Origin: an uncultured Chloroflexia bacterium
GTDB taxonomy: Bacteria > Chloroflexota > Limnocylindria > Limnocylindrales > CSP1-4
Direction of reading: 5' to 3'
DNA: 64,000 nt
Assembly: GCA_963713975.1 (NCBI GenBank)
Contig: OY970218.1
Location: forward strand, 1,216,001 to 1,280,000
The position numbers were made by a program, and so were the translations under genes. The notes beneath the pieces are model-generated. The model saw only the letters and a list, made by a program, of their open reading frames with translations. It had not been told where the DNA came from and made no database searches. This document shows, in pieces, positions 14,791 through 48,464 of this stretch. Within the stretch, counting starts at the first letter, position 1; each line of letters starts with the position of its first letter.

Positions 14791-14839
14791 GTACACAATC
14801 CGGCTTGACTAGCGTCCACAGGCAGCGCAGCATGCCGCC
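14791..14839 (+). promoter_or_regulatory. Leaderless promoter with GTACACA box (Tad/T4SS operon)
   Basis: GTACACAATCCGGC-TTGACT-N17-CAGCAT-N6-ATG. First 29 nt are 25/29 identical to 39736-39764. Confidence 0.75.
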
Positions 14840-15148
14840 ATGCAGAACGTCATCGGCATCCGAACCCTTCGCCGGCAGGTGAACGAGTCGCTCCTGCGCG
14901 TGGCGCGCGGCGAGACGATCGTCATCGCCCGGCACGGGCGTCCGGTCGCAATCATGCGGCCGATCACCGACGGCGACACGGGCCGGCGGGTATCGGTCAC
15001 GACGTTCCGCCGCAACCTGCGGCGGGCCCTGGTCGTGACGCGACGCCGGCCGATCGTGCTCACCTGGTATGGCGACGGGGCCGCGGTCATCGCGCCCGTG
15101 CCCCCGGAGCTTGAGATCGCGTACGACGACGAAGAGGAGCTGGAATGA
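14840..15148 (+). CDS. Tandem Phd/YefM-domain protein
   Basis: IGIRTLRRQVNESLLRVARGETIVIARHGRPVAIM, then a second unit VSVTTFRRNL...PIVLTWYGDGAAVI. Confidence 0.8.
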   Translation: MQNVIGIRTLRRQVNESLLRVARGETIVIARHGRPVAIMRPITDGDTGRRVSVTTFRRNLRRALVVTRRRPIVLTWYGDGAAVIAPVPPELEIAYDDEEELE

Positions 15149-15744
15149 CGGCGGGCGGCATGATCCAGGCGCTCGGGATGCGCGAGGTCCGCGGCAACAT
15201 GCGCGCGGTCGTGGCCCGGGTCGAAGAGGGCGAGGCGCTCGTCGTCCTGCGCGACGGCCAGCCGAGTGCTGTCATGCTCGCCTTCGCGGAGGCGCAGCGC
15301 TGGCAGCAGATCGAGCGCGCCCTGTCCGCGTTCCACGGCCTCGAGATCTACCCGGAGCTCGCCCGCGACACGCCCGAGCTGGCCCGGATCGTTCGGCGCG
15401 AGACCCGGCCGTCGGGTGCCGCGGTGCGCCGGCTCGCTGACCAGTCGCGCGACATCCTTGCGCCGCTGCGGACGATGGGGATCACGGACGCCCGCACGAC
15501 GTTTGCAGCGATCCTCGACGAGATCGAGGCCGGGCGGACACTCACGATCGTGTCGTCGGGCCGGTTCGCCGCGACGCTCGTGGCCCCCCGGGAGTTCGAC
15601 CGTCTGCGAACGCTCGACCGCACCGTGAGCTGGTTCCGCGCGGCCGGCCTCGACCTCAGCATCGCCGACGAGGCCGCTGTCGGTGCCTTCGTCCGGGAGT
15701 TCGCGACTCGGTCGGCTGCCTCCGACGCCGCGGCGGCCGGGTAG
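15145..15744 (+). CDS. Tandem Phd/YefM-domain protein
   Basis: LGMREVRGNMRAVVARVEEGEALVVLRDGQPSAVM and MGITDARTTFAAILDEIEAGRTLTIVSSGRFAATL. ATGA overlap with the previous gene. Confidence 0.8.
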   Translation: MTAGGMIQALGMREVRGNMRAVVARVEEGEALVVLRDGQPSAVMLAFAEAQRWQQIERALSAFHGLEIYPELARDTPELARIVRRETRPSGAAVRRLADQSRDILAPLRTMGITDARTTFAAILDEIEAGRTLTIVSSGRFAATLVAPREFDRLRTLDRTVSWFRAAGLDLSIADEAAVGAFVREFATRSAASDAAAAG

Positions 15745-15752
15745 GGACGGCG

Positions 15753-16148
15753 ATGATGCGGCGGTTCCCGCGCCACGCGATGGTCGCCCGCCTGTGGGTC
15801 GCGGCCCCCTTCGTCGTCGTGCTCCTGTGGCTCGCCGCCGGGTCGACCGTCCTCGGCGCGGACAGCGTCCCGCGGGGCGCCAAGGAGGCGCTCGCGCCGG
15901 TGACGAAGATGATCGGGACCCTGGTCGCGATCGCGATCGGCTTGGGGATCGCGATCTGCGGCGCGGTGATCGTCTGGGGCGGGATCGAGAAGACGCTCGC
16001 GGGCGCGAACCAGGACGCCGAGCATCGCGCCTCGCGGCGGATCCAGAACGGGATCCACGGCCTCGTCTGGATGATCCTGGCGTCCGTCATCGTGTCCACG
16101 ATCACGGCGATCGCGGTCGCCTACGGGCTTATCAACACGCCCTTCTGA
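15753..16148 (+). CDS. VirB2/TrbC-like T4SS pilin
   Basis: Signal-like N-terminus and two TM helices around WGGIEKTLAGANQDAEHRASRRIQNGIHGL. Confidence 0.7.
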   Translation: MMRRFPRHAMVARLWVAAPFVVVLLWLAAGSTVLGADSVPRGAKEALAPVTKMIGTLVAIAIGLGIAICGAVIVWGGIEKTLAGANQDAEHRASRRIQNGIHGLVWMILASVIVSTITAIAVAYGLINTPF

Positions 16149-16161
16149 GGTACCCCTGAGC

Positions 16162-17295
16162 ATGCTGACGACCGGGGGCTTGGTTCCCCATGCCCTCCAG
16201 AGCCCGGAGACGGGTGCCGATGCGACCTGGCAGGTGCCGCCTGTGGGCCTCGCCCTCGCCCTTCTCGCGGTCCTGGGGCTTGGGCTCGCGCTGCTCGGGC
16301 AGGCCATGCCGTCGCCGATCGCACCCGTGCCGACAACGGCGGAGCGCGCCGCGCCCCAGGCGCCGGTCGGCGACATCCCGATCCTGGGCGATCCGGTCCG
16401 CGACCTCACGGTCTGGTACTCGGACCGCGTGCGCGACGCCAACCGCGCGGCGCTCGACAACCTGCGGGGCCAACTCCTCACGCCGATCGACCCGCTGAAC
16501 GACAAGGTCACCCGCACCCTGTACGGCCCGATGGTGCTGATCACGATCCCGCTGCTGACGTTCGGCGGCCTCGTCCTGGGCTACCTGATCATGGTCAGCG
16601 GGACGAGCGGGGAGACGGCGTACGCGGCCCGCTCGGTCGCACCGCGGTTCGTCGTGGGGGCGACGCTCGCGATCCTGGGCATCTTCCTCGTGTCGGTGAT
16701 CACCCAGTTCGTCTCGGCGCTCGACGCGGCGATGGTCGGCGTCGCGCTGCCGGCGTCGGCGGTTGGCGATGCGGCCGCCTGGCCATCGACCGGCGGTGTG
16801 TTCCTCGTCCTCCAGCAGGGCGGCTTTGATCCCCAGGTCGCCCAGGGGCCCGACAACTGGAACAGCGGGGCGTGGCTCTCGTCGGGGCTGCTCGCGGGGA
16901 TCCTGACGACGTGCCTCGCGATGCTGAACTGGCTGTTGGCCGGGGTCGAGCGGCTCCTCGTGCTCGTCGGGCCGCTGTGTCTGGCCGCCTACGCGATCCC
17001 GGCCACCGAGCGCGTGACGAGGCTCTGGTTCAAGGTGCTCATCGTCGTCCTGGCGATGCGGTTCGCCTGGGCGATCACGTTCGTCCTGTTCAGCCTCCAG
17101 GCGGGCGCCTACATGGGCGCTTCGGGGGCGCCGGCGACGGTGGCCGACATGAATGTCCTGCTCGGCCTGGCCGCGGGTGCGGCGGCGATGATGCTCGGCC
17201 TCCCGCTGGTGCTGATCCCGGTCGCACTTGCGGGGCCGCAGATCCTCGACGTCGGGAGCGCCGCGCGGACCGTCGCCGCGCTGCGGTACCTCTAG
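16162..17295 (+). CDS. VirB6/TrbL-like polytopic membrane protein
   Basis: Multiple TM helices with ERLLVLVGPLCLAAYAIPATERVTRLWFK. Lies between the pilin and PrgI genes. Confidence 0.65.
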   Translation: MLTTGGLVPHALQSPETGADATWQVPPVGLALALLAVLGLGLALLGQAMPSPIAPVPTTAERAAPQAPVGDIPILGDPVRDLTVWYSDRVRDANRAALDNLRGQLLTPIDPLNDKVTRTLYGPMVLITIPLLTFGGLVLGYLIMVSGTSGETAYAARSVAPRFVVGATLAILGIFLVSVITQFVSALDAAMVGVALPASAVGDAAAWPSTGGVFLVLQQGGFDPQVAQGPDNWNSGAWLSSGLLAGILTTCLAMLNWLLAGVERLLVLVGPLCLAAYAIPATERVTRLWFKVLIVVLAMRFAWAITFVLFSLQAGAYMGASGAPATVADMNVLLGLAAGAAAMMLGLPLVLIPVALAGPQILDVGSAARTVAALRYL

Positions 17296-17297
17296 CG

Positions 17298-18725
17298 ATG
17301 CCGAACCTCGTCGACGTGCCCGAGAACGCCGTCCGCGAGGAGCCGCTGGCGTTTGGGCTCACGGCGCCACAGCTGCTGATCTGCGGGATCGCGGTGGCGA
17401 TCGGCGCGGTGATCCAGCTCATCCCCATGTGGTTACCTCTCCAGATCCTGTTGACGGTGCTGCTCGCGGGCCCGGTGCTGCTCGCGGCGATCCTGCCGAT
17501 CCGGGGTGAACCGGCCTACCGGTGGTTGCTTCGCTGGGTCCGCTACCGGCGCGGTCCGCGCACCTGGCACGCCGTGCTCGGTCCGGATCCACATAAGTCG
17601 CAGATAAGTGAGGAGGCGCACCCTGTCGTGGCTCCGCCCCTCGCGGCCGCAAGCGCGAATACGGCAAGTCTCGGACTTGACGGCAGGGAGGGACAGGTAG
17701 ACCTTGCGGGGGATTCGGCTCCGAGCGTCCAGGAGCAGACATCGATGGGTGAGCGCACCGTCCGACTCCGGGTCGTCGAACTTGACGACGAGGGTCCGGC
17801 GCCCGACCGTTCGAACACGGAAGGCGCGCCACACGAGCGACCCTCGGCAATCCCGCACGTGCTCCCTGGCCTGCGCGTCGTCGCCATCACGAGCTTTGCC
17901 GGTGGGGTGGGCAAGACCACGCTCGCGGTCGAGGTCGCGACGCTGGTCGCGTCCCGTGCCCGGATCCGCTCGCTCGAGGGCACAGAACAGGCGGTCCGTG
18001 TCCTGATCCTCGACGCGTCGCGACTCGCGAGCGCCGTCGGCCTGCGCCTGGGGCTCGACCCGGCCGCCCTGGCAGCCGCCTGGAGCCATCGGATCTGGCG
18101 TGATCCCTCCGCCATCGGGGACCTCGCTGCGGGCACGCGGTGGGGGGTTGATGTGCTCACCCTGCCGCCCCACCCCCAGCTCACCGCGCACGACGGACAG
18201 GCCGACCCACGAGCTGGGGTCTTCGGTGCTGTCGAAGCCGACGCGCTCCTCGAGGGCGTCCAGCGCGCGGGGTATCACCTGCTGGTGACGGACCTGGGCG
18301 GCGTGCTGGAGGACGGCCACCGCCAGCTCATCGACCAGGCCGATGTCGTCCTTGGCGTTGTCCGACCGACCCTCGAGTCGCTCCCGGACGTGTTCCGGCT
18401 CGCGACCGTGCTTCGGCTCCAGGGGATGGGTCGCAAGCTCGGGATCGTCGCCAACGGCGCGGACGACGACACCGAGGTCAAGCGGCTGGCGCGCGAGGCC
18501 GACGTGCCGCTGCTCGGGCGCGTCGGCATCGATCCGGTGTTCACGGTCGCGGCCGACCGCGGCGAGCCCGCCTGGTCCATCGCACCGGCGCGGACGGGCG
18601 AGCTCGTCGGTGTCGCGCGGGCCGCTTGGCCGCTGCTCTCCGATGCGCCCGGGCGCATGACGCGCAGGCGCTCGGTGCTGCGTGCCGTCCGCGACGCGAT
18701 GCCGGCTCCCGGAGGCAACCAGTGA
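17298..18725 (+). CDS. PrgI (VirB3-like) domain fused to a TadZ/CpaE/MinD-like P-loop ATPase
   Basis: N-terminal VDVPENAVREEPLAFGLTAPQLL plus two TM helices; C-terminal SFAGGVGKTTLA, LILDA, VTDLG, ADVVLGVVRP. Confidence 0.75.
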   Translation: MPNLVDVPENAVREEPLAFGLTAPQLLICGIAVAIGAVIQLIPMWLPLQILLTVLLAGPVLLAAILPIRGEPAYRWLLRWVRYRRGPRTWHAVLGPDPHKSQISEEAHPVVAPPLAAASANTASLGLDGREGQVDLAGDSAPSVQEQTSMGERTVRLRVVELDDEGPAPDRSNTEGAPHERPSAIPHVLPGLRVVAITSFAGGVGKTTLAVEVATLVASRARIRSLEGTEQAVRVLILDASRLASAVGLRLGLDPAALAAAWSHRIWRDPSAIGDLAAGTRWGVDVLTLPPHPQLTAHDGQADPRAGVFGAVEADALLEGVQRAGYHLLVTDLGGVLEDGHRQLIDQADVVLGVVRPTLESLPDVFRLATVLRLQGMGRKLGIVANGADDDTEVKRLAREADVPLLGRVGIDPVFTVAADRGEPAWSIAPARTGELVGVARAAWPLLSDAPGRMTRRRSVLRAVRDAMPAPGGNQ

Positions 18726-20026
18726 GCACGGAACAGTCACCAGGGTTCGCCCGTGCCCCGCTCTCGTCGGCCACGCTGGGGACCGTCCGGCGGATGCTCG
18801 TCGCGCGCCTCGCGCCCGAAGTGCTCAACCCGTTCGGGCGCACCGAGGAACAGGAGGCGACGCTCCGTCGGACGATCGGCGAGATCCTGGCCGAGCCAGA
18901 GCTCGACCTCGACACGTCGCCGGCACTCGTCGCTGCGGTCGAGGCCGCCGTCTGTGGCCTCGGGCCGCTGCAGCCGCTCGTCGATGACCCGCTGATCGGG
19001 GACATCCTGGTCAACGGCCCAGGAGAGATCTTCATCGAACGCGAGGGCCGCCTCGAGCCGACCGCCGTCACGCTCGGATCCGCCCGAGAGGTCATCGAGC
19101 TTTCCGAGCGGATCGCCGCCCTGGCCGGGCGCGAGCTCTCCGTCGCCCACCCGGTGGTCGATGCCCGGATGCCCGACGGGTCGCGGGTCAACGCCGTCAT
19201 CCCGCCGGTCGGCGGCCCGTACCTCTCGATCCGCAAGTTCAACCGGCTGCGACTCGACCTCGTGCCGGGCGGCCGGCATGGTCGCAACTGGGTCGCCGAG
19301 GGCGGCCTCGATCCCGCCATGGCCGACCTCATCGCCCGTCTCGTGCGAGCGCGCGCGAACATCCTGGTGGCGGGCGAGACGGGCGCCGGCAAGACGACGT
19401 TCCTGCGCTCGGTGACCGACCTGTTCGATCCGGCCGAGCGCATCGGTGTGGTCGAGGACACCGCTGAGCTCGCGCTCGAGAACCCCGACCGGTTCAACCT
19501 CGAGACGCTCCACCCGCACGACCTCACGGGGGGCGAGGCGGACGCGCGCCTGCTCGACGTCGGGGACCTCGTCGCGAACGCCCTGCGGATGCGGCCCGAC
19601 CGGCTGATCGTGGGCGAGATCCGCCTCCCCAAGGAGGCGTTCTACACGCTCCAGGCGCTCCACACAGGACACGACGGATCGGCCACGACCATCCACGCCA
19701 GCAGTGCCGAGGATGCCCTGTTCCGGCTCGAGCTCCTGGCGCGCCAGAGCATGCGCGACCTCACGATCGTCGACCTGCGGACCTACATCGCGCGCGTGTT
19801 CGACCTCGTCGTCGTGCTGCGCCGCCTGCGGTCGGGCCGGCGCATCGTCCGCCAACTGACCGCGGTCGACGGCCTCGCCCCCGACGGGGGCTACCGCCTC
19901 GTCGACGTGTTCCGTGCCGAGGCCTCGCAGGGGTCAGAGGTGATCCGGTTCGTGCGCGACCTCGAATGGCGGCCATCGCCGCGGCTCCTGGCGCGTTTCG
20001 AGATCGAGGGCGAACGATGGAGCTGA
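18722..20026 (+). CDS. tadA: Tad pilus assembly ATPase TadA/CpaF
   Basis: GLGPLQPLVDDP, DARMPDGSRVNAV, GETGAGKTT, ALRMRPDRLIVGE, TGHDGSATTIHA. Confidence 0.92.
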   Translation: MSTEQSPGFARAPLSSATLGTVRRMLVARLAPEVLNPFGRTEEQEATLRRTIGEILAEPELDLDTSPALVAAVEAAVCGLGPLQPLVDDPLIGDILVNGPGEIFIEREGRLEPTAVTLGSAREVIELSERIAALAGRELSVAHPVVDARMPDGSRVNAVIPPVGGPYLSIRKFNRLRLDLVPGGRHGRNWVAEGGLDPAMADLIARLVRARANILVAGETGAGKTTFLRSVTDLFDPAERIGVVEDTAELALENPDRFNLETLHPHDLTGGEADARLLDVGDLVANALRMRPDRLIVGEIRLPKEAFYTLQALHTGHDGSATTIHASSAEDALFRLELLARQSMRDLTIVDLRTYIARVFDLVVVLRRLRSGRRIVRQLTAVDGLAPDGGYRLVDVFRAEASQGSEVIRFVRDLEWRPSPRLLARFEIEGERWS

Positions 20027-20892
20027 TCGGGGCCCTCGCGGTCGGTGTCGCGGTGTTCGCGGCCCTGATGGCGTTGCTGCCATCGCGGGCGCAACCTTCG
20101 CTTGGACTCGGGATGCGGTTGCGAGTGGCGTACGCGGCACGGATCGAGGCGGCCGCGTCACTGCTCGGCCGGGCCCGCTTGGAGATCTCGCCACGCAGCT
20201 ACCTCGCGCTCTCGGTCGCGGCCCCGGTCGCCCTGGGACTCCTGGGGCTGCTGCTCTCGGTGCCGATGGGGATCCTGGGGGTCATCGTCGGCGGCCTCGT
20301 CCCGCGCTGGTACGTCCGCTATCTCGTGGGCTCCGAGGCACGCGCCGCGGCCGACGATGCGCCACGGGTCCTGCGCGCCATGGTCAACCGGGCAGCGTCC
20401 GGCGGCACGTATCCGGACCTGTTCGCGGCGGCGGCCGAGGCGGCCCGCCACCGCTGGGTGAAGGCCGACTTCGAGGAAATTCTCGGTCGCTACTACGCGA
20501 ACGAGCCCCCGGCAGAGGTGCTCATCGACGTCCGCCGGCGCCAGGCGGGGCGGAACCTCGCCCTCGTCTACGACGCGCTGATCACCCTCACCCGGACCCA
20601 TCAGCCGGTCTCGGCCGCGGCCGACGTCCTGGGCTCGCTCGGCGAGGCGGCGCGCGCGAACCAGTCCATCGCCCGCCAGGCCGCCGCCGAGAGCAAGGGG
20701 CTGCGGCTCCAGGCGGCGATCCTCGCGATCGTCATCCCTGCCCTGTTCCTGTACCTCACGCTGGTCAACGGGGAACTGATTGCGCCCGTCATGGCGACCC
20801 CGCTCGGGCGCTACGTCCTGCTGCCCGCAGCCGCCCTGCTCGAAGTCGCAGGCATCGTCCTGTCCTGGCGCGTCACGAGGCTGGAGGCGTAG
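20017..20892 (+). CDS. tadB: Tad pilus inner-membrane platform protein TadB
   Basis: T2SSF-like topology directly after tadA. Confidence 0.8.
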   Translation: MELIGALAVGVAVFAALMALLPSRAQPSLGLGMRLRVAYAARIEAAASLLGRARLEISPRSYLALSVAAPVALGLLGLLLSVPMGILGVIVGGLVPRWYVRYLVGSEARAAADDAPRVLRAMVNRAASGGTYPDLFAAAAEAARHRWVKADFEEILGRYYANEPPAEVLIDVRRRQAGRNLALVYDALITLTRTHQPVSAAADVLGSLGEAARANQSIARQAAAESKGLRLQAAILAIVIPALFLYLTLVNGELIAPVMATPLGRYVLLPAAALLEVAGIVLSWRVTRLEA

Positions 20893-20896
20893 GGCG

Positions 20897-21802
20897 ATGG
20901 AGCTCGTGGGAACGGCCGCGGTTGCACTCGCGGTGTTCTGCCTGTGCATGGCGGTGTTCGGCGGATCGCTGCTCACGCCGCGGCGACTCGACGCGATCCG
21001 CGCGGTCGCGCTTCCGAGGCAGCAGTACGAGCGCCTCGTGTCGGACGACCAGCCGCTCTGGGAGCGGATCCTGCGCCCCGTCGCGGTGCGCCTCGCCGCC
21101 AGGGCGCCCGCATTCGCGTCCCAGGTGAGCGAGCGCGACCTCATCCGGGCTGGGTTCGACCCGCAGGTCCTCACTCCCGCCGAGGTCTACGCCGCCAAGG
21201 TGGTGCTTGCTGCCGCCATCCTCGCGGTCGGCTTCGCCCTCACCCCGCTGTTCTCCGCGGCGCTGCTGGTCGCGCTCCCGATCGCCTTTGTGGGCTACGT
21301 GTTCCCGACCGAGTACCTGGCGTCTCGCGCCAAGGCGCGCCAGGCCCAGATCGGGCGCGAGCTCCCGGACTTCCTGGCGCTCGTGCGTCCGCTCGCCGCG
21401 AAGCACGGCCTCGAGCACGCGGTGGCGGACGTGGCCGACGCGCTCCACGAGGCGTCCGGCGGCGGCAACCTGCTCGCCCGCCAGATCCGCGGCGCCGTGG
21501 CGGCGTACGGCACGGGCACGGATCTGTACGCCGCGTTGCGCGACGTCGCGGCGGCATCGGACATCGAGGCGCTCGACGAGCTGGCCGCTGCCCTGGCGCA
21601 GTCACGAAAGCTCGGCAAGGGCGTCGGCGAGACCCTCGGCGAACACGAACGTTCGCTCCGCGACGCCGAGCGCAACCGGCTCATCGGTGCCGCCTCGACG
21701 GTGCAGCCGAAGCTTGCCGCAATCCTGGCCGGGATCTATCTGCCCGCGTTCGTCCTGCTCATCGTGGTCCCGCTGTTCGCCTCGACACTCGGTCGAATCT
21801 AG
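20897..21802 (+). CDS. tadC: Tad pilus inner-membrane platform protein TadC
   Basis: RQAQIGRELPDFLAL, ALAQSRKLGKGVGETL; second T2SSF paralog. Confidence 0.85.
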   Translation: MELVGTAAVALAVFCLCMAVFGGSLLTPRRLDAIRAVALPRQQYERLVSDDQPLWERILRPVAVRLAARAPAFASQVSERDLIRAGFDPQVLTPAEVYAAKVVLAAAILAVGFALTPLFSAALLVALPIAFVGYVFPTEYLASRAKARQAQIGRELPDFLALVRPLAAKHGLEHAVADVADALHEASGGGNLLARQIRGAVAAYGTGTDLYAALRDVAAASDIEALDELAAALAQSRKLGKGVGETLGEHERSLRDAERNRLIGAASTVQPKLAAILAGIYLPAFVLLIVVPLFASTLGRI

Positions 21803-21818
21803 TTACCGGAGGTGCGCC

Positions 21819-22016
21819 ATGAACCTAACTGACCTGCGACACCTGCTCCGGCGGATCTGGGCCGCGGTCCACGCCGATGAACGGGGCCTGACGACGCTCG
21901 AGTACGTGATTGCGGCCGGGATCATCCTCGTCGTGCTGGCGGCGGCGATCCTCGCCTGGAACAACGGGCTCGCCGCGAAGATCGGCGATCTCGTTCGTCA
22001 GCTGTCGGGGTCATGA
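21819..22016 (+). CDS. flp: Flp type IVb pilin
   Basis: DERG/LTTLEY prepilin cleavage motif followed by a hydrophobic helix; GGAGG RBS. Confidence 0.9.
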   Translation: MNLTDLRHLLRRIWAAVHADERGLTTLEYVIAAGIILVVLAAAILAWNNGLAAKIGDLVRQLSGS

Positions 22017-22438
22017 GACCGCCACGGAACGCGCTGCCGGCGTGGCAGCGGCGACGAGGCGAGGCGGGAGCGGCGGCGGTCGAGGCGGTCCTCGTCGTGC
22101 CGCTCGTGCTGATCCCGGTTCTGTTTGCGGTCTTCATCTTCGGTCGTCTCGCGCACACCCGGATCGTGCTCGACGCCGCCGCTGCGGCGGGGGCGCGCCA
22201 GGCTGCCGTCGCAGGCGCAGACACGCCGACCGTCCGTGGCCGCATCGCGACCGAGCTGCGCGACGGGGGATTGAATCCGGCCCATGTCAGTGTGACCATC
22301 GAGCCATCGGTGGCCGGCTGGGGCGAGCCGATCCACATCCGCCTCGCGACCGACGAGGAGGCCGGCATCCCGTTCCTGGGCACCTGGCCCATTCCGATGT
22401 CGTCGGAGTTCGTCACCCGGAGCGAGGTGACCCACTGA
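22013..22438 (+). CDS. tadE: TadE-like pseudopilin
   Basis: EAG/AAAVEAVLVVP and AAAAGARQAAV. Confidence 0.85.
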   Translation: MRPPRNALPAWQRRRGEAGAAAVEAVLVVPLVLIPVLFAVFIFGRLAHTRIVLDAAAAAGARQAAVAGADTPTVRGRIATELRDGGLNPAHVSVTIEPSVAGWGEPIHIRLATDEEAGIPFLGTWPIPMSSEFVTRSEVTH

Positions 22439-22935: not shown

Positions 22936-22937
22936 CG

Positions 22938-39784: not shown

Positions 39785-42022
39785 ATGCGCACCATCATCT
39801 CGGCACCACTCGCCGACTCCAGCCGGCTGACCATCCGGCGGCCTCAGGTCCGGCCGCCAGCACCGGCACCGCAGGGTCCGATTGCAGGTGTCACGGATGG
39901 CCAATTCCGGATCGATGGCCGGTATGTCGCTGGGTTCGAGCTCGGCCCGGTCAATCTCGAGCTCATGGCCGAGGCGGAGCGGGACGCGGCCCTCCAGTCC
40001 CTCGCCGCCTTCTACGACACGATCGCACGACCGTTCCAGCTCGTCTCGATCCCCGCCGAGCGGAGCCCGGACGACCACCTGGCGGCGATGGAGGCGCGGG
40101 CTGAGGGCAAGCGGATCGTACGGGCGTTCGCCGCGTATGCCGCGCTGTACCGCGAGATCGCCGCCGCGCCCCGGCGGCCCCTGCGACGGACGTACCTGCT
40201 GCTCGACGCGGCGAGCGAGCCCGAGCTGCGGCGGATGATGACGAGCCTTGCCCGCACGGCCGAGGAGCGGGGCGTGACCGCGCGCGAGGTCGAACCCGCG
40301 GAGCTCGGCGCGTTGTGGGCCACCGTCGGCCGGGCGGGGATCGAGCACCGGATCGGCGCGTCGGTGATCACTGGCGAGCGACTGCTGACGGCCCTCGTGC
40401 CGACCCGCCGCTGGCCGGCGGAGGTCGAGCCCGGCTGGCTGACCGAACTCCTCGCAGTCCAGGGGGTTGGCCCGGTCGCAATCCGCATCCGGCCGCTCGG
40501 GCGCGCCGAGGCGATGGCGTTCATGACGACGAGGCTCCGCCAGGTCCGGGCCGCCGACCGGCTGGCCGCTGAGCGGGGCGAGCTCGGCGACGTGGAGCGC
40601 GAACGGGTGGGCGACACGGCGACCGCTGCGAGGCGTTCGGTCCAGGCGGGCCGCGGCCGGATCTACCTCGCCGATGTGGTCCTGCTCCTCGAGGCGGATG
40701 ACCGCGCGAGCATGAACGAGCGGATCGAGTCGCTGCGGCTCGAGGGCCGGGGCACAGGGCTCGAGCTCGAGGTCGCCACGTTCCGGCTCGCCGACGCCTG
40801 GCGGGCGGCCCTGCCGGGTCCGGCACCGCGGCCGCTCGCCGAGCGCAACCTCGACTCAGGCTCGCTCGCCGCGTCGCTCCTCCACGCAGCGTCGGATCTG
40901 TACGAGCCGACGGGGCACCTGTACGGGCGGACCAAGACCAGCGGCGCGCCGATCGTGCTCGACCGGTTTGCCCACGCGAGCCACAACGCGATCGTGCTCG
41001 GCCAGACCGGGACCGGCAAGACGATGTTCACGGGCGCCGAGATGAGCCGCTGTCTCATCCGCGGGATCCGGGTGCTCGCGGTGGATCCGCTGGGCGACTA
41101 CCGCCGGCTGGCGGACGAGCTCGGTGGCACGTACCTCGATCTCGGCGCACCCGGCGTGGGCCTCAACCCGTTCGCGTTCACCGGTCCCGCGACCGATGGC
41201 GCGCTCACCGCCAAGATCGCTGCCCTCACGCGGCTCGCCGCCGCGATGGCCGGTGGCCTCTCCCGCGACGAGCGTCCTGCCCTCGACCGGGCCCTGCGCA
41301 CGACCTATGACGATGCAGGCATCGGCCCCGATCCGGCGTCGCTCGATCGGGAGCCGCCGACCCTCGCCCACCTCGTCGAGCGGCTCTCGGGGTTCGCCGA
41401 CGGTGCCCCGCTCGCGCACCGTCTCGAGCGCTGGGCGGCAGGGTCGCTCGCGCACCTGTTCGCCGGCGGTGCGGCGCTCCCGCTCGACCGGCGAATGCTC
41501 GTCATCGGCCTCGCCGCTCTCTCGGACCCCGAGGTGCGCTCGGTCGCCCAGCTGGCCGCGCTGGGGCTGCTGTGGGATGCCGTGCGGCGCGACCTTGCGC
41601 CCAAGCTCGTCGTCGTCGACGAGGCGTGGAAGGTGATGCGCCAGCCCGCGGGCGCCGAGTTCATCGAGGAGCTGGCCCGTTCGGCCCGCCACTACCACGC
41701 GGGGCTCCAGCTCGCGACCCAGGACATCGTCGAGTTCCTGCGCAGTGACTTCGGCGAGTCGATCGTCAAGCAGTCCGACCTGCGGGTCCTGCTGGGGCAG
41801 ACGCCCGAGGGCGCCGACGCACTCACCCGCTACTTCGACCTGACGCCCGCCGAGCGGCGCTCGCTCGTCCACGCCAGCCCGGGCGAGGGGCTGCTGTTCG
41901 TGGGGCGGAGCCACGTGGCCTTCGAGGCCTCGGTCTCTCGCCGCGAGTACGCGATGCTCACCACGCGACCAGCCGATCTGCTGGCAGACCCACACAGGTA
42001 CGCGCCACCCGATACCGGGTGA
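39785..42022 (+). CDS. virB4: VirB4-like conjugation ATPase
   Basis: LGQTGTGKT, VDPLGDY, VVVDEAW, ARSARHY, ATQDIVEF. Confidence 0.88.
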   Translation: MRTIISAPLADSSRLTIRRPQVRPPAPAPQGPIAGVTDGQFRIDGRYVAGFELGPVNLELMAEAERDAALQSLAAFYDTIARPFQLVSIPAERSPDDHLAAMEARAEGKRIVRAFAAYAALYREIAAAPRRPLRRTYLLLDAASEPELRRMMTSLARTAEERGVTAREVEPAELGALWATVGRAGIEHRIGASVITGERLLTALVPTRRWPAEVEPGWLTELLAVQGVGPVAIRIRPLGRAEAMAFMTTRLRQVRAADRLAAERGELGDVERERVGDTATAARRSVQAGRGRIYLADVVLLLEADDRASMNERIESLRLEGRGTGLELEVATFRLADAWRAALPGPAPRPLAERNLDSGSLAASLLHAASDLYEPTGHLYGRTKTSGAPIVLDRFAHASHNAIVLGQTGTGKTMFTGAEMSRCLIRGIRVLAVDPLGDYRRLADELGGTYLDLGAPGVGLNPFAFTGPATDGALTAKIAALTRLAAAMAGGLSRDERPALDRALRTTYDDAGIGPDPASLDREPPTLAHLVERLSGFADGAPLAHRLERWAAGSLAHLFAGGAALPLDRRMLVIGLAALSDPEVRSVAQLAALGLLWDAVRRDLAPKLVVVDEAWKVMRQPAGAEFIEELARSARHYHAGLQLATQDIVEFLRSDFGESIVKQSDLRVLLGQTPEGADALTRYFDLTPAERRSLVHASPGEGLLFVGRSHVAFEASVSRREYAMLTTRPADLLADPHRYAPPDTG

Positions 42023-42972
42023 CCGCGCGGAGTGGCAGCGGTGCGGGCTGCGCCCTGGGCTGTGGCTGCGGCGGCCTGGTCATGGTCCTCGTTGCCGTCA
42101 TGGTCATGGGTGTCGCGGGCGCCCTCGCCGGCAGCTGGGCGGCGATGGCTGCTCCCTCGCCCGCCCGATCCGGCGATGCCGCCGCCATCCCGCCCGCGTA
42201 TCTCGCCCTCTACCAGGACGCGGCGGCCCGCTTCGAGCTCGACTGGGAGGTGCTGGCGGCGGTCGGGCGGGTCGAGACCAACCACGGGCGCAACCGCAAC
42301 GGGTGCGCGCCGAACTTTGCAGGCGCCCAGGGCCCGATGCAGTTCCTGCCGGCGACCTTCGCCCACGCTGCCAAGCTCGCCCACATCGCCGACCCCGACA
42401 TCTGCGATCCGGTCGACGCGATCCCGGCGGCCGCAGCGTACCTGCAGTCCAACGGCGCGCCGAAGCGCTGGGACCACGCCCTGTACCGGTACAACCCGGC
42501 CGACTGGTACCCGCCCCTCGTCATGGGCTGGGCCGTCCGCTACGGGTACGGCGCCTCGGTGGTGTGGCCCGCCGACGGGCGGATCTCCCAGCGCTTCGGC
42601 CCGACGAAGTTCACGGGCGAGCCGCCCCTCTGCTACGAGGGCACCTGCTACGCCCACTTCCACGACGGGCTCGACATCGCGGCACCGACAGGCACGCCAG
42701 TCCTCGCGATGGCGGCGGGGCGGGTCATCCTCGCGGGACGGGTGGCGGACGGCGCGGTCGTGGTGATGATCGACCACGGCGCGGGTGTCGAGACGCTGTA
42801 CGGCCACCTCGAGCCCGCGCTCGCGGTCAGCAAGGGCGACCAGGTCGCTGCGGGCCAGCTGCTCGGAACGGTGGGGCTCACCGGGCGTACGACCGGGCCG
42901 CACCTGCACTTCGAGCTGTGGCACGGGGCGAAGCCGATCGATCCGCTCACCATGCTCCCGGTGCGCCCGTGA
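42019..42972 (+). CDS. Lytic transglycosylase plus M23 peptidase (VirB1-like cell-wall hydrolase)
   Basis: LAAVGRVETNHG, AGAQGPMQFLP; HDGLD, YGHL, TTGPHLHFE. Confidence 0.9.
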   Translation: MTARSGSGAGCALGCGCGGLVMVLVAVMVMGVAGALAGSWAAMAAPSPARSGDAAAIPPAYLALYQDAAARFELDWEVLAAVGRVETNHGRNRNGCAPNFAGAQGPMQFLPATFAHAAKLAHIADPDICDPVDAIPAAAAYLQSNGAPKRWDHALYRYNPADWYPPLVMGWAVRYGYGASVVWPADGRISQRFGPTKFTGEPPLCYEGTCYAHFHDGLDIAAPTGTPVLAMAAGRVILAGRVADGAVVVMIDHGAGVETLYGHLEPALAVSKGDQVAAGQLLGTVGLTGRTTGPHLHFELWHGAKPIDPLTMLPVRP

Positions 42973-45341
42973 TCGTCGATCTCGGGTGGGTCGCAGGCTC
43001 GCTCGCATCGCTCGTGCCACTCGCCGCGGCGTTCGTGGGGCTCGCGCTCCTCTTCGTCCTCGTCCTGCGTCTCGTGCCCGTCGCGCGCCAGCGCGCCTAC
43101 GACCGGGTGTCGGCGCGGGAGACGGTCAGGCTCGTCGTCGCGCTGCCGGCGCGGGCCGCCGCCGACGCTGGGCTCGGGGTCGAGCTCATCCGGGCGCTCC
43201 ACCCCCGAGCACGTCGCGGCTTCGATGCCTGGCGCGTCGGCTGGCCGCGCATCGAGCTCCGGCTCGTCTGGCGCGATGGCTCCCTGGCCTTCGAGATCGA
43301 GACCAACAGCCAGGTCGCCGCCGTCGCCATGGCGCAGCTGCGCGCCCTGTATCCCGGGGTGGCCATCGAGACGACCGACGGTCGCGACCAACCCCCGGCC
43401 GCGACCGCGATCGGGCGGCTGGACGGCCCCCGGGGCTGGCCGCTGCGGGAGGTGGCGGCTCCCGAGGCCCGCATCCCCCGTGCCCTCGCCGCGGCGCTCG
43501 AGCATGCCCCCGCCGGTGCCGAGGTGCGGCTGCGGTGCGTCGCACGACCCGTGCCGCCCGAGGCCTGGCGGCGCGACCTCGGCGCCCCGGAGGATGCGAG
43601 CCCCGGATCGCTTCGATCCCTCATCGGGCGCGCGATCGTCGACGCCATCCTGCTCCGGCCGACCGCCGCGACCACGACTCAGTCTCCTGTCCGGACCTCG
43701 CCGGCAGAGCGTGAGGCCCAGGCCCGCAGACGCCGTGGCGTCGTCGGGTTCGACGTCGGCCTCCGCCTCGAGGTCGCGGGGATCGCAGGCCCGGCCGCCG
43801 AGGCGCTGCTGTGGCGGCTGGTCCATGTCACCGCCGAGCTCGACGACGGCCGCCAGGCGATCCGCTGGCAGATCCGGCGTGGCAGCGCCGGGGGAGCGCC
43901 CGCGGCGAGGCTCGCGGACTGGGAGCTCGCCCAGCTGTGGTCCCTGCCCGACGCGTCCTTCGACGAGGCCGGGTTCACTCGCGCGCGCCCGCTCGGGGCC
44001 GCGCCGCCGGCGTCGCCCGACGGCCTCGGGCTCGTGCTCGGCGAGAGCCGCGGTCGAGCGCTGGTGCTGCCCGCCGACGCCCTCGCCCGTCATCTGGCGG
44101 TGTTCGGCTCGACGGGATCGGGCAAGAGCACGCTCTTGCTCAACCTCGTGCTCGCACTGGCGGAATCGCCGATCGGGGCCACGGTCATCGATCCCCATGG
44201 CGACCTGACGACCGACATCCTCGAGCGGCTGCCCGAGAATGCGGCATCCAGGGTCCACGTCCTGCGGCTGGCCGATCGCGACCACCCGCGCGGGTTCAAC
44301 TTCCTCGAGCGCGCGTCGCCCGACGAGGCCCAGCTCGTGACGAGCGAGTTCGTCGAGCTGTTCGAGGACCTGTGGCCGAGGTTTTGCGGCCCCAAGATGC
44401 AGCACTACCTGCGGCACGCGCTCCTGACCCTGCTGGCTGCTCCTGAACCCGGGACGATCATCGAGCTCACCCGCATCCTGACCGACGACGCCTTCCGCGA
44501 GCCGTTGGTCGCCAAGGTCACCGACCCGCTCGTCGCCGCGTTCTGGCGGACCGAGTGGCCGGGGCCCAAGGAGCGCGAGCGCGACAGCTCGATCAAGGCG
44601 GTCCTCAACAAGCTCGGCGCCTTTGTGACCTATGCCTCGATCCGGAACGTGGTGGGGCAGGGGGTCTCGACGATCCGGCCGCGGGCGCTCATGGACCGGG
44701 GCGAGATCCTGCTCGTCGACCTCTCGGGCGTGGGCGGCGACAACGCGAACCTGTTCGGCGCGATGCTGATCAGCCGCTACCTGATCGACGCCACCGGGCG
44801 CCAGGGCACCCCGCGCGACCAGCGGCGCCAGCACGTGCTCGTGGTCGACGAGGCCCAGCGGTTCGACACGCGGGCGATGGGCAAGATCGCCGTGGAGGGT
44901 CGCAAGTTCGGCCTGGCCCTGGCGATCGCCTCGCAGTCGATGGGCGGCCTGGGGGAGCGGCTGCGCGAAACGGTCCTCACCAACGCCGCGTGCCTCGCGC
45001 TCCTCGCCCCGGGCGCCGACGACCTGCGCGGCCTCGGGCGCCTGGTGGCGCCGGTGTCGGTCGACGAGCTCAGCCGCATGCGCCGGTTCGAGGTGCTGCT
45101 CCGGATGCCCGGGCCCGACGGGCGCCCGGGTGTGTACGGCGGAACGGTCAGTGCACCTGGTCCGTCTGACCCTGCCACCGCGGCGGCGATCGTCGCACGG
45201 AGCGACGCGCGCGATGCGCGGCCGGTCGATGGGGTCCGCGCGGAGGTCCTCCGGCGGGCCGGCGGCGACGACGCGGTGCCCAGCAAGGCCGATGTCGCAA
45301 GCGCCGCACCGTCCGAGCAGCAACGCGGCCACCAGTCATGA
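42969..45341 (+). CDS. virD4: Type IV coupling protein (VirD4/TraD-like)
   Basis: N-terminal TM, RHLAVFGSTGSGKST, IDPHGD, VVDEAQRF, EGRKFG, ASQ. GTGA overlap with the previous gene. Confidence 0.88.
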   Translation: MIVDLGWVAGSLASLVPLAAAFVGLALLFVLVLRLVPVARQRAYDRVSARETVRLVVALPARAAADAGLGVELIRALHPRARRGFDAWRVGWPRIELRLVWRDGSLAFEIETNSQVAAVAMAQLRALYPGVAIETTDGRDQPPAATAIGRLDGPRGWPLREVAAPEARIPRALAAALEHAPAGAEVRLRCVARPVPPEAWRRDLGAPEDASPGSLRSLIGRAIVDAILLRPTAATTTQSPVRTSPAEREAQARRRRGVVGFDVGLRLEVAGIAGPAAEALLWRLVHVTAELDDGRQAIRWQIRRGSAGGAPAARLADWELAQLWSLPDASFDEAGFTRARPLGAAPPASPDGLGLVLGESRGRALVLPADALARHLAVFGSTGSGKSTLLLNLVLALAESPIGATVIDPHGDLTTDILERLPENAASRVHVLRLADRDHPRGFNFLERASPDEAQLVTSEFVELFEDLWPRFCGPKMQHYLRHALLTLLAAPEPGTIIELTRILTDDAFREPLVAKVTDPLVAAFWRTEWPGPKERERDSSIKAVLNKLGAFVTYASIRNVVGQGVSTIRPRALMDRGEILLVDLSGVGGDNANLFGAMLISRYLIDATGRQGTPRDQRRQHVLVVDEAQRFDTRAMGKIAVEGRKFGLALAIASQSMGGLGERLRETVLTNAACLALLAPGADDLRGLGRLVAPVSVDELSRMRRFEVLLRMPGPDGRPGVYGGTVSAPGPSDPATAAAIVARSDARDARPVDGVRAEVLRRAGGDDAVPSKADVASAAPSEQQRGHQS

Positions 45342-45356
45342 TCGGCCCGCTGACCG

Positions 45357-45410
45357 GGTGCGCCAGATGGGGCGCCAGATGGGGCGCCGAGACGCCCCTA
45401 TGGGCGCACC
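45357..45410. repeat. Candidate oriT-like repeat cluster
   Basis: GCGCCAGATGGG twice (45360-45383), bracketed by the inverted repeat GGTGCGCC/GGCGCACC, between the coupling protein and relaxase genes. Confidence 0.35.
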
Positions 45411-45453
45411 GATTCCGTGCTCGGGACGCGGGGTCACGGCGAAGGGACCTCAC

Positions 45454-46341
45454 GTGAGCGGACGCCGTGGACAGCCGGCCGCTGGCTCACGCACGCTCGG
45501 GGTCGACCTCGATGCCCTCCCGATCGCGGACAAGGCCGCCCTGCGCCTCCTCATCCGCGCCGATGCCGCCACCGCCTCACAGCTTGCCCGCCTCATCTAC
45601 CGCCGCGAGCGAACCGCCCAGGACCGGCTCCTCGAGCTCTGGCGCACAGGCGCGCTCGAACGATCCACCGACCCCCGCTCCGGCCGAGGAACCGCCACCC
45701 TGGCATACCGCACAAGCCAGATGACCCGAGCACACCTCGGCATTCGCGAGCCGCGTGCCAGCAGTTTGTACCTCCGCCACACCCTCGACATCGTCGAAGC
45801 CGTGTGCGCGCTCGCCGCTCCCGATCCGGCGGACGCACCTCGCGCGGTCCAGGCCTGGCTCACCGAGCGGATGAGCGCAGACCTGCCGGGTCCCGGGATC
45901 AGACCCGACAGCGTCGTCGCCCTGCAGGTGGGTGCACGCTCCGCCGTCCTGTGCCTCGAGATGGACGAGGGGACCCAGCACGCCCCGGTCATCCGGGCCC
46001 GCCTTGCCGCCTACGGCCGTTGGCTGCCCACGCGCGCCGGCTGGCACCTGCTGTTCGTCGTCCAGAGCGAGCAACGCACCCGCTGGTTGCGCCGCCTGGG
46101 GTCCTGGCATGGCCCGGCGTCGCTCGAAGGCCGGTCATGGGTCGTGCGGCTGGCCGACGTCCGCTCCGATGGACTCGACGCGCTGGCGGTGCCCATCGTC
46201 GGCGTGGAGTCAGCCGTGCCGGTCAGTGGCCTCACCCGGGATCCCGCCTCCCGTGAGTCCGCTGCGCCCGTAGGGTCGAACGCCTGGATCGAGCTCCTGG
46301 GCCAAGGCGGCGGTGAGGACCTCAGCCACGCGCTCCGATGA
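45454..46341 (+). CDS. Replication-relaxation (Replic_Relax) family putative relaxase
   Basis: N-terminal wHTH, LRHTLDIVE, IRPDSVV, LEMDEGT; follows the coupling protein. Start uncertain. Confidence 0.8.
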   Translation: MSGRRGQPAAGSRTLGVDLDALPIADKAALRLLIRADAATASQLARLIYRRERTAQDRLLELWRTGALERSTDPRSGRGTATLAYRTSQMTRAHLGIREPRASSLYLRHTLDIVEAVCALAAPDPADAPRAVQAWLTERMSADLPGPGIRPDSVVALQVGARSAVLCLEMDEGTQHAPVIRARLAAYGRWLPTRAGWHLLFVVQSEQRTRWLRRLGSWHGPASLEGRSWVVRLADVRSDGLDALAVPIVGVESAVPVSGLTRDPASRESAAPVGSNAWIELLGQGGGEDLSHALR

Positions 46342-46457
46342 CGCAGGGGAGCCCATGTGCTCGACGGGAACCTCGAGACCGGCGGAATGCCCTCTGGACG
46401 GCCGGCTCGGACAACCGTTCTCAAGACCGGACATCGGTTACAGCTCTTGCTGGCCTC

Positions 46458-48107
46458 TCATGGTCTCGCAGTGCCATGTACCGAGGCCTCGCGGATCAAG
46501 TCAGCCTCCGCCTGCTCGTCGGACAGGGGCTCGTAGGCCATCGCCTTGCAATACTCGTCGAAGCTCCAGCGGGCGAAGCTCGCGGCGAGGTAAGGGAACT
46601 GCTCGCTCGACTCCTCTGCGTACTCGGTGCGCGGGATCGCGTGCTGGTCGTGCAGCGGGTGGCGACAGCGCACGACGACGTAGTCCCCCAGAGCCGCCCA
46701 GTCGCCGTGCAGCGCGGAGCCCGCCGGGATCATGACCGAGTGGTACATGTCCTCCAGCCCAACCTCACGCGACATGTCAAGAAGTCCCTTGTCAGCGGCA
46801 AAGGTGCCCGCGGTGCTGATGTCCTGGAAGTCCTCGGAGACGCCGCGATTCACGTCCGCGCGCAGCTTCGGCAGGAGCCGCTCGAGGATCGCGTGCGGCT
46901 CCCCCTCGGTCCGACCGATAACCTCCTCCGTGTGGAGCATCAAGGCCTTGGTCCGCCCGCGACCGAAATTCTTGAACTCGTCCCAGATCGCCGGCCGCGA
47001 GCTCTCCACCGACAACATCCACTTCAGCTGCACGTAAGCTTCGAAGAGCGACCGGACGGACGGATAGCCGTGCTCCTCGGACCAGAGGGCCGGATGTGAC
47101 ACGAGATGGGCTGCGACCCTCAGAGCGCGCCAGACCACTCCCGTGAGGACGTCGTAGCGATCGTGGTTCCAGATGTCCGGGTCGATGTCGGCCGCCGCCC
47201 GCAGGAATTGGTAGTGCAGCCGGTACAGACGGGCAGCTCCCTGCGCGAGATGGTCCTGATCAGGGGGTGAAGCCTCGCCAGCCGGGACAGTGAGGCAGCG
47301 GAACAGGCGCCCGTTGGCGCGCCAGAACCGCTCGCACCACGCGCCGCCCGCTAGTGAGCCCTCGAGTTCTGCGGCCTGGAAGGAGAGGAACGACGCCCGG
47401 AGTGTCGTCTCGGCGAGCTTCCGCTCACCTTCGCTCACAGGGTTCTCGTAGTTGCGAAGCGCCTTGAAGCCGGGGTCGTCAGGGTGGAAGGAGATCCGCT
47501 GCGTCATGACCATGCCGCGGAGCCAAAGGTAGATGGCGTCGGTCGCGAGTTCCTGGTGCGAGTCGCCGCCGAGGCGCATCGTTTCCCAGAGGTGTTCCTC
47601 TGCTTCGACCAGGTCCGGCACGAGTCCGGCGTCGAAGTGGGGTTGGGCGAGCCATCGACCCGGCGCGTCGTCGTACGCGGCCAGGACGTGGGCGAGCGGC
47701 TCGGGCGAGATGGCGTCATAGATGCCAAGCCGCCTGAACTCGTCCACCAACTCGTTGCGCTCCCGGTCCGGGACACGCTCCCAGTCGGTCAGAAGGCCGT
47801 GGAAGACCGGCTCGCGGTCGCCGCCAAGCGCACCGCGTTCGTGGGCCCTATGGAAGGCGGCTTGCCCTGCATCCAGCGCCTGCGTCGTAGCGCCGCGGGC
47901 GAGGGGCCGGAGGCGAAGCATGGTCAGGAGCCACAGGAAGTCCGGAAAGGCAACCTTCCGGAATGGCCGCAAGGTGGGCGGGATCGGCAGATTGAGCATC
48001 GGCGGGACATGTCGCGTACCCAGCCGGTAGTGGCCGCGGAACGGAGACGGCCGGGATCCGCGATTCGACTTGCGCGAGTCCGCGTCCATCCCATCCATTT
48101 GGAACAT
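46458..48107 (-). CDS. DUF5677-like protein
   Basis: FPDFLWL; C-terminal VRSLFEAY...GSALHGDW pattern. Start uncertain. Confidence 0.6.
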   Translation of the reverse strand: MFQMDGMDADSRKSNRGSRPSPFRGHYRLGTRHVPPMLNLPIPPTLRPFRKVAFPDFLWLLTMLRLRPLARGATTQALDAGQAAFHRAHERGALGGDREPVFHGLLTDWERVPDRERNELVDEFRRLGIYDAISPEPLAHVLAAYDDAPGRWLAQPHFDAGLVPDLVEAEEHLWETMRLGGDSHQELATDAIYLWLRGMVMTQRISFHPDDPGFKALRNYENPVSEGERKLAETTLRASFLSFQAAELEGSLAGGAWCERFWRANGRLFRCLTVPAGEASPPDQDHLAQGAARLYRLHYQFLRAAADIDPDIWNHDRYDVLTGVVWRALRVAAHLVSHPALWSEEHGYPSVRSLFEAYVQLKWMLSVESSRPAIWDEFKNFGRGRTKALMLHTEEVIGRTEGEPHAILERLLPKLRADVNRGVSEDFQDISTAGTFAADKGLLDMSREVGLEDMYHSVMIPAGSALHGDWAALGDYVVVRCRHPLHDQHAIPRTEYAEESSEQFPYLAASFARWSFDEYCKAMAYEPLSDEQAEADLIREASVHGTARP

Positions 48108-48409
48108 GATGCCGTACGGGCCACCAAGGGCGAACGCGGGTGCCAGAGATCAGCGCAGCCGTGGCAAGGACGGCCATTGGCTGCTTGACGACCGCGAACA
48201 GCATGCCAGTAGTGCCGACGCACGCGAGTGCTTTGACAATGATCCAGAGGTATCCGATCAGGACCTACTTGTCCGTTGCGGCGCATCGTCAATCCAGCGA
48301 GGGTGGGTCAGCGCGGGCTCGGGCAGGGGGCGTTCAACTCGTACACCCAGGGTGACCCGGTGAGGCTCGTTGGCCAAAGGTGCCCCTCGTCCATCGGGAC
48401 TCTGCAAGG

Positions 48410-48464
48410 GTACACAAACACGTACACATATAGCATTGACCATGCTGCAGACCGAGCGCATCGT
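48410..48464 (+). promoter_or_regulatory. Promoter with tandem GTACACA boxes upstream of the RNA/ubiquitin-like operon
   Basis: GTACACAAACAC-GTACACATATAGCA-TTGACC-N17-CATCGT. Confidence 0.65.

Follow-up and report, generated by a model that had tools for sequence, protein, structure and literature searches.

Phd2, a putative activator of the Phd/YefM antitoxin fold, and a shared promoter box in a conjugation regulon with a ubiquitin-like operon from Limnocylindria

Introduction

The closest described systems, SetCD of the SXT/R391 integrative conjugative elements (ICEs), and AcaCD/SgaCD of IncC plasmids and SGI1, rely on a single factor encoded by the element, whose site directly precedes the −35 element of the transfer operons. 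SetCD boxes are described in PMC4344509 as located immediately upstream of −35, in promoters without a recognisable −35, and as copied by satellites; SGI1 encodes its own homologue of the activator (PMC8373056). We analysed a stretch of 64,000 nucleotides from an uncultured Chloroflexia bacterium (contig OY970218.1, positions 1,216,001 to 1,280,000; hereafter the window), which lies inside an ICE of approximately 98 kb, together with related elements labelled Chloroflexota/Limnocylindria, from a setting of soil and sediment Chloroflexota. Both the mating-pair operon of this element and its operon for a ubiquitin-like protein (Ubl) are preceded by the heptamer GTACACA, hereafter the box. Phd2, a protein with two Phd/YefM antitoxin domains, very probably binds the box, and it probably activates transcription from this site. 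As judged from comparative data, we consider it likely that the box is the Phd2 site and that Phd2 acts as a class II-type activator, switching on the mating-pair operon and the operon of the leader and Ubl genes together.

The logic is that of SetCD/AcaCD; the protein, the site, and the diversity of codes are new. As in those systems, satellites carry mimic sites (here 11 of 14 relaxase regions without phd genes), and some of them encode their own homologue of the factor. SetCD and AcaCD are heteromers of the FlhDC type, their sites are longer, and their promoters have no canonical −35, whereas the candidate here is a single-chain double Phd/YefM protein with a unit of 7–8 bp, often repeated at 12 bp. 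Moreover, TTG is retained at −35 of the main promoters, the gene of the factor comes first in the operon under its control, and one host class harbors at least five specificity classes side by side. No member of the FlhC/FlhD family was found among the element proteins scanned.

The same DNA-binding fold and GTAC-core sites 12 bp apart in the own promoter are known from yefM-yoeB and P1 phd-doc (PDB 4zm0, 2a6q). The operator of Escherichia coli YefM, which is a repressor, has two TGTACA cores at a spacing of 12 bp, one of them over the −10 (PMC4803016). In contrast, here two domains are joined in one chain, there is no adjacent toxin, the site is asymmetric and upstream of the core promoter, sites also occur at distant operons and on other elements, and the sign of regulation appears to be the opposite. 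Bacterial E1-E2-JAB-Ubl operons on conjugative mobile elements were already described in 2006 (Iyer et al., PMC1779556); the present operon likewise comprises Ubl, Prok-E2_D, JAB, and ThiF genes on a conjugative element. In the literature searched, most subscription papers being outside the search, we found neither a report of such an operon wired to a transfer regulator nor a Phd/YefM-fold activator, a Phd master regulator of conjugation, or a description of these elements; the accessible parts of PMC4963828 and PMC8138530 mention no Phd-family activator. If the proposed role is correct, Phd2 would be the first Phd/YefM-fold activator found in print, an on-switch role for a normally repressing fold and a new solution for switching on the transfer of integrative elements, and conjugative elements from uncultured Limnocylindria would have a regulatory map for the first time.

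Results

Box promoters in the window and in related elements

An initial annotation of the window had described three promoters of the geometry GTACACA-N7-TTG(A/T)C(T/C)-N17 followed by a weak −10. All their coordinates and spacings were reproduced (Table 1), and so was the likeness of sites 1 and 2, which differ by 4 mismatches in the first 29 nt and each start 49 nt ahead of an ATG. The window has 6 copies of GTACACA (0.97 expected; 0 of 100 shuffles reach 6), and the whole genome of 3.62 Mb (designated G000; other genomes, loci, and contigs are designated by G, L, and C numbers) has 42. TTG(A/T)C(C/T) is found seven bases on in 3 of these 42 copies, against 0.016 expected, and all three combinations lie in the window. 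When G000 was scanned for box, −35, and −10, the three window sites ranked 1st, 2nd, and 4th of 11 matches over the threshold. Two additional sites had been overlooked: a tandem box at G000:1301799-1301852, outside the window, before the gene of an AAA+ ATPase with a C-terminal winged helix (AAA-wHTH), and a site at G000:2266081-2266135, on a separate satellite. The GTACACA copies at 7926 and 45131-45137 were rejected as promoter boxes; both fall within genes, have no −35, and seem fortuitous. A host-wide regulon was also rejected, since the other scan matches inspected (1396307, 524484, 107208) had no convincing link.

Table 1. Location of the promoters, genes, and neighboring features in the window.
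Feature	Position	Strand	Description
IS21-type end scar	14617..14758		87% like the IS21 end near 56951-57066; directly upstream of site 1, outside the box
Site 1	14791..14842	+	Single box 14791-14797; −35 TTGACT 14805-14810; −10 CAGCAT 14828-14833; leaderless phd1 ATG 14840; promoter of the phd-Tad/type IV secretion system (T4SS) operon
Phd1	14840..15148	+	102 aa; two bare tandem Phd/YefM domains, no tails; PF02604 and TIGR01552
Phd2	15145..15744	+	199 aa; two tandem Phd/YefM domains, conserved helical tail after each; putative box-binding activator
Mating-pair operon behind site 1	15753..25412	+	T4SS pilin, PrgI-CpaE, TadA/B/C, Flp, TadE/G, CpaB
Six-codon frame	25409..25429	+	Overlaps the cpaB stop (GTGA); cpaB and virB4 abut in relatives
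Metal/redox cargo, ~14 kb	25430..39700		Extracytoplasmic function (ECF) sigma, cation efflux, ArsR, DsbA, BlaI/M48; splits cpaB from virB4 in G000
Site 2	39736..39787	+	Single box 39736-39742; −35 TTGTCC 39750-39755; −10 GATAGT 39773-39778; leaderless virB4 ATG 39785
virB4, SLT-M23 hydrolase, virD4-like coupling protein, Replic_Relax relaxase	39785..46341	+	Behind site 2
Site 3	48410..48471	+	Boxes 48410-48416 and 48422-48428 (12 bp apart); −35 TTGACC 48436-48441; −10 CATCGT 48459-48464; predicted start ~48471
Non-coding leader, ~620 nt	48471..49102	+	Conserved; 544-682 nt in 27 loci
Ubl, E2 (Prok-E2_D), small open reading frame (ORF), JAB, E1 (ThiF) operon	49103..51995	+	Core gene block

In leaderless promoters of the host, TAnnnT stands 6–7 nt ahead of the ATG, and just 16 of 232 have TTG at −35; a minority use C or G at −12. 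Given this pattern, the −10 elements and the leaderless starts proposed here are in keeping with the habit of the host, while a fixed −35 is out of the ordinary.

Of 31 related phd loci, 30 yielded a promoter with the geometry of site 1, and of 31 Ubl loci, 27 yielded a promoter. Among the 60 distinct promoters (27 Ubl and 33 phd), the best box core ended 6–9 nt before −35 in all 60 (7 nt in 42), a total that is partly circular because the promoter finder rewarded TT and TAC/CAC. The box was wholly upstream of −35 in each of them and never over −35, −10, or start; it abuts −35 in a fixed phase, as does the site of a class II activator, and the palindromic operator over the core promoter of type II toxin-antitoxin systems was not found. 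The −35 began with TTG in 51 promoters and with TT in 60, and T was at −12 in 51. The weak −10 elements noted in the three window promoters are therefore a property of this lineage and not of the family. The −10 is poor in G000, and the −35 is poor in 9 of the 27 Ubl promoters and in all 11 satellite promoters; many phd promoters are near consensus. A second box 11–12 bp upstream was present in 20/27 Ubl and 13/33 phd promoters.

Several box classes were distinguished: GTACACA, CTCACACA, GTACGCA, TACACAAC, TTGTACAT, and GTCCCG. The Ubl box matched the phd box of its own element better than those of others (0.76 vs. 0.57) in the 16 elements with both promoters, paired on the same contig in nine and across contigs in seven, multi-element genomes being excluded.

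The three promoters are not three independent witnesses. In relatives, virB4 adjoins cpaB in 10 of 11 loci of one set and in 45 of 47 close-family loci of a larger one, from which 8 distant rows were removed as partial matches; the contiguity is overstated because loci with virB4 beyond the 10-kb flank were uncounted. The six-codon frame at the cpaB stop is probably the remnant of the original virB4 start. Site 2 is closest to site 1 of the same genome (37 of 52 positions; 21 of 30 non-motif positions identical) and is a secondary copy of it that arose at the point where cargo interrupts an operon left unbroken in most relatives. The likeness of the two is not independent evidence since they are homologous copies, and the ancestral promoters are two. 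Other promoters with the element's own box stand at cargo breaks before virB4 (G020, G302, G305), before SLT (G275), and, in G000, in front of AAA-wHTH, which there is 34 kb away from E1. These are not copies (11–13 of 30 non-motif positions).

Co-variation of the box with Phd2

The Ubl box is at least 18 kb away from phd2; therefore, linkage predicts that it should follow its own neighbors. The distance between Ubl boxes correlated with that of Phd2 (Mantel r 0.55; 0.57 given E2), compared to 0.12 for the adjoining leader and 0.06 for E2. Phd2 ranked best of 20 core proteins, followed by TadA (0.30), Phd1 (0.27), and AAA-wHTH (0.19), and its partial r was 0.49–0.64 with any other core protein held fixed. 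The top 9 of 992 twenty-residue windows were all in the two Phd domains of Phd2. The best window (r 0.81) covered strand 1, helix 1, and helix 2; residues 8–27 gave 0.80 and the tails 0.10–0.13. Helix 1 reads DNA in the Phd/YefM fold, in agreement with the operator complexes among the structure matches. The co-variation is thus strongest at the predicted DNA-reading helix of Phd2.

When placed on trees, the box classes required 4 changes (the minimum) on Phd2, 6 on E2, and 6 on AAA-wHTH. G024 and G021 have sister E2 proteins (98/97 support), yet their boxes differ and follow their Phd2. Minimal phd1-phd2-virD4-relaxase elements without Tad, Ubl, and AAA genes (G135, G045 C7, G294 C14, G129) retain the box, as do phd2-only loci without phd1 (G122, G014 C8, G020 C7, G020 C4), with divergent box promoters in at least the first three of the latter. 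Phd2 is the common candidate because both kinds of loci keep the box. The proposal that one factor acts on the transfer and Ubl promoters is accordingly supported by comparison, with an element-encoded candidate, though the virB4 promoter is a derived duplicate and not that of a third ancestral operon.

Phd1 and Phd2 proteins and the proposed mechanism

Both proteins matched PF02604 (Phd1 34.2 and Phd2 60.3 bits; cut-off 29.8) and exceeded the cut-off of TIGR01552; the N- and C-terminal halves of Phd1 matched each other with an hhalign probability of 95%. The two genes overlap by ATGA and travel together in most loci. The model of Phd2 (predicted local distance difference test score 91) showed two Phd units (strand-helix-helix-strand-strand) with helical tails. 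It superposed on P1 Phd, VapB46-N, and YefM with a root-mean-square deviation of 1.0–1.6 over 38–57 residues; against 2odk, 3hs2, and 9g12 the Z scores were modest (5.6–5.8; deviation 1.0–1.6 over 51–56 residues), and no Foldseek row had E≤0.001. The tails were the most conserved parts (0.77–0.80 vs. 0.63–0.69). Unlike the antitoxin gene of a type II toxin-antitoxin system, phd2 has no adjoining toxin gene; a T4SS pilin or virD4 gene comes after it in the mapped elements.

In the mechanism we propose, Phd2, a single-chain pair of Phd/YefM domains, would be seated on the box beside −35 and co-activate the mating-pair operon and the leader-Ubl-E2-JAB-E1-AAA operon. The two non-identical fused domains would account for an asymmetric site, GTACACA, replacing the palindromic YefM core, and the helical tails, freed from toxin binding, would contact RNA polymerase (sigma region 4 or the C-terminal domain of the alpha subunit, alpha-CTD). 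Since phd1-phd2 head the mating-pair operon, positive feedback would follow. Tail-less Phd1 would be a partner or a competing damper, possibly binding with Phd2 or competing with it. Satellites would sense the helper element through the box.

To a wider scenario we give slightly better than even chances. In it, an antitoxin fold was fused into a single-chain pseudo-dimer that is now the master activator of a conjugation regulon with the Ubl operon; helix and box have diversified into private codes; satellites eavesdrop, some by hybrid operators combining a site for their own Phd2 with a helper site; and Phd1 damps the loop. The natural Phd2/box pairs of at least five specificities make this model testable by swaps and are potential small orthogonal regulators.

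Satellites and the sign of regulation

A satellite of 13.9 kb (G000:C1:2257025-2270944, L392) is located at the 5′ half of tRNA-Gly(TCC) with a 39-bp direct repeat and encodes a relaxase, a tyrosine recombinase, and a two-component cargo, but no phd gene. Its tandem GTACGCA/GTACACA box, 460 nt before the relaxase, stands 36 nt before TAGTCT without a −35. In a scan of G000 without the −35 term only two matches were obtained, site 3 and this satellite, which is likely mobilised by the element of the window. Of the 14 Phd-less relaxase regions, 11 (10 distinct) had a tandem helper-type box 36–38 nt before a good −10, directed into relaxase or virD4; the −35 slot held TTCC in 10 of these, and a −35 was otherwise lacking. 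As controls, 155 kb of rpoD loci contained 1 match and 2 Mb of shuffled sequence contained 2. No full-length Phd2 was detected in the satellite hosts G200, G215, and G278, whose assemblies are 89–92% complete.

In a host without the helper, retention of the helper's site on a crippled promoter is readily understood for an activator but hardly for a repressor. A tandem box before a poor −35 fits an activator that would be sensed in trans, as with SetCD/AcaCD. The class II activator suggested by the annotation is therefore favored by the position of the box and by comparison, its argument from weak −10 elements is not general, and activation is what we infer from these data.

Three 6-kb phd1-phd2-virD4-relaxase-serine recombinase satellites, L335 (G135 C2), L336 (G045 C7), and L344 (G294 C14), have hybrid operators with a distal GTCCCG, the class doubled in G129, and a proximal GTAC(A/G)CA of the helper class. 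The transcripts of satellites L379-L385 would open with a conserved GGCTCGGCGGCTGACG hairpin-like leader of 450–750 nt before the relaxase. This leader resembles the 5′ end of the Ubl leader and may contain an origin of transfer (oriT) or a structured RNA.

Alternative explanations

Phd2, with or without Phd1, may bind the box and repress, as in yefM-yoeB or phd-doc, which seems unlikely to us. Dimers upstream of −35 would then hinder sigma region 4 or alpha-CTD, with relief by proteolysis, by dilution in a new host, or by an anti-repressor. Repression agrees with the 12-bp double-core operator of YefM, with the location of the phd genes behind their own box, and with the good −35 and −10 of many phd promoters, and the co-variation evidence serves it equally. 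However, the fixed phase and the position clear of −35, −10, and start differ from the L site of YefM, which overlaps −10 (PMC4803016), and the Phd-less satellites with a tandem box and a poor −35 would have their relaxase on without the helper and off once it arrives. We consider it improbable that Phd1, or an obligate Phd1-Phd2 heteromer like SetCD/AcaCD, reads the box and activates, with Phd2 alone being insufficient. The ATGA overlap and joint travel of the two genes suit such a heteromer, the hybrid operators of some satellites could serve two proteins, and helix-1 windows of Phd1 also track the boxes (r 0.46–0.53, both boxes pooled); but with Phd2 held fixed the partial r of Phd1 falls to 0.00–0.06, and the loci with phd2 and without phd1 in G122, G014 C8, and G020 C7/C4 retain boxes. 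Very improbable is a different binder, be it AAA-wHTH, a host regulator, or an alternative sigma factor. AAA-wHTH, which ends the Ubl operon, is a core gene with a DNA-binding domain and its own box in G000, and direct repeats suit winged-helix oligomers. It was rejected because it does not track the box (r 0.19; on its tree the 6 changes are matched by 59 of 200 shuffles as low) and is absent from the minimal box-bearing elements. The specificity of a host factor would not vary among elements in hosts with 90–99% identical sigma region 4, and its sites should scatter over the chromosome, which they do not. As for duplication and chance without any shared regulator, site 2 was indeed copied from site 1; but copying does not account for site 3, for the secondary promoters in other elements, or for those of the satellites (11–13/30 non-motif positions), which still keep the box distance, and the box co-varies with Phd2, so that we regard this explanation as having a negligible chance.

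A number of observations weigh against activation by Phd2. The characterised Phd/YefM proteins are repressors (PMC4803016), many phd promoters look strong unaided (TTGAC-17-TAGCGT), in contrast to those of SetCD, and positive autoregulation needs an off-switch and a trigger, for which the model names no candidate. The phd2 loci of G032 and G230 have no clear box, no promoter was recovered at 4 of 31 Ubl loci, a box is missing from 3 of 14 satellite regions, and the absence of Phd2 in satellite hosts depends on incomplete assemblies. The box position in 60/60 promoters is partly circular, and 7 of 16 phd/Ubl pairings run across contigs. On the tree of x15 (14 rows), the protein used as the query for the locus search in place of Phd2 because the Phd2 alignment was too variable, the box classes likewise need 4 changes. 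As the elements are related, Mantel and permutation p-values overstate; therefore, we put the weight on the rank of Phd2 among proteins and on the location of the signal. Finally, RNA of the Ubl operon in bulk sediment could reflect expression without induction.

The Ubl operon and its leader

Metatranscriptome contigs of close relatives from four runs cover the leader and the Ubl operon. In three runs the RNA records start at 48481-48482, and in the remaining one at 48471; one contig spans 48409-48500, and nothing lies upstream of 48409. These are a weak hint for the predicted start because contigs fix neither start nor strand, and three runs are maybe one campaign. Rfam gave no match in the window, leader included.

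The Ubl operon is placed in the regulon because it is a core block that carries the element's own box in nearly every case. A part in the transfer programme, as the annotation put it, holds in this regulatory sense; a role in transfer does not follow from co-regulation. Its transcript normally runs into AAA-wHTH and often a recombinase, so these genes may be the reason why the box persists; the arrangement in G000 speaks for both halves, because after the split each half has a box. The tie of the Ubl operon and the large leader RNA to the transfer switch indicates when to look for their activity. Unlike in PRTRC systems, the matches to the A (21.8/101.8 bits), B (24.1/131.45), and ThiF (48/144.75) models were far below NCBIfam cut-offs; Ubl and the small ORF matched none of the PRTRC models, and the full PRTRC set (A, B, C, E, F, ThiF, ParB) is not present. 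Comparison with the Bil system (BilA-D) yielded nothing for Ubl, E2, or JAB; what matched the BilD and E1-E2 models was no more than a generic E1 domain.

At L066 (G207), L256 (G314), and L072 (G296, unpublished), a small helix-turn-helix-like gene replaces the 5′ part of the Ubl leader and the box promoter; the Ubl operon may be rewired or dead there.

The element, its distribution, and neighboring features

The element extends over G000:1206339-1304895 at tRNA-Arg(CCG) and has the integrase, att-like repeats, relaxase, coupling protein, and VirB4 of an ICE. Its large serine recombinase (G000:1303480-1304943) overlaps the tRNA-Arg(CCG) end, and an att-like repeat is located at 1206339. Four earlier att-like repeats of the tRNA-Arg end (G000:C1:1173586, 1196778, 1198546, 1206339) form a tandem array of older insertions left of the element.

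Among the 301 genomes surveyed in the class, 23 had Phd2 homologues, 16 had E2, and 25 had the relaxase. The unpublished G296 enters these numbers but no other count, although two of its proteins are in the Phd2 alignments. The Phd2 search scored 8000 candidates, and Chloroflexota was the commonest taxon in the taxon listing. The core genes are arranged as phd1-phd2-pilin-Tad genes-cpaB-virB4-SLT-virD4-relaxase and, after these, leader-Ubl-E2-small ORF-JAB-E1-AAA-wHTH, with a recombinase often coming next. A distant Tad-plus-VirB4 cluster occurs in other phyla (~30% identity in x15; L161, L231-L240); no Phd match and no informative replacement regulator were detected in these loci. Viral collections contained no relative of x15 or E2.

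AAA-wHTH (G000:C1:1301896-1303068; L006:1896-3068) is the core gene ending the Ubl operon. It may conceivably serve as an excision or replication helper; in G000 and G275 it is of a very divergent type. The G000 type, sought in five more genomes, was found only in G306, so that the tandem box before it is known from G000 alone. The gap between the relaxase and the Ubl promoter is a cargo hotspot. In the window it holds a DUF5677 protein with a DitA match in PADLOC (46458-47999, minus strand), and G302 has a homologue-sized ORF in the same place.

IS21-type ends (GTCCCTTGACA and variants) adjoin several box promoters upstream (window 14617-14758, L061, L063, L064, L093), which suggests that this region is an IS21-family insertion hotspot. 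The IS21 element at 54321-57066 of the window has been recently active, as it is 99.9% identical to a second copy at G000:3342427-3345172. At least nine tandem repeats of 24 nt at 12950-13269 are probably a Gly/Pro-rich coding repeat of the minus strand.

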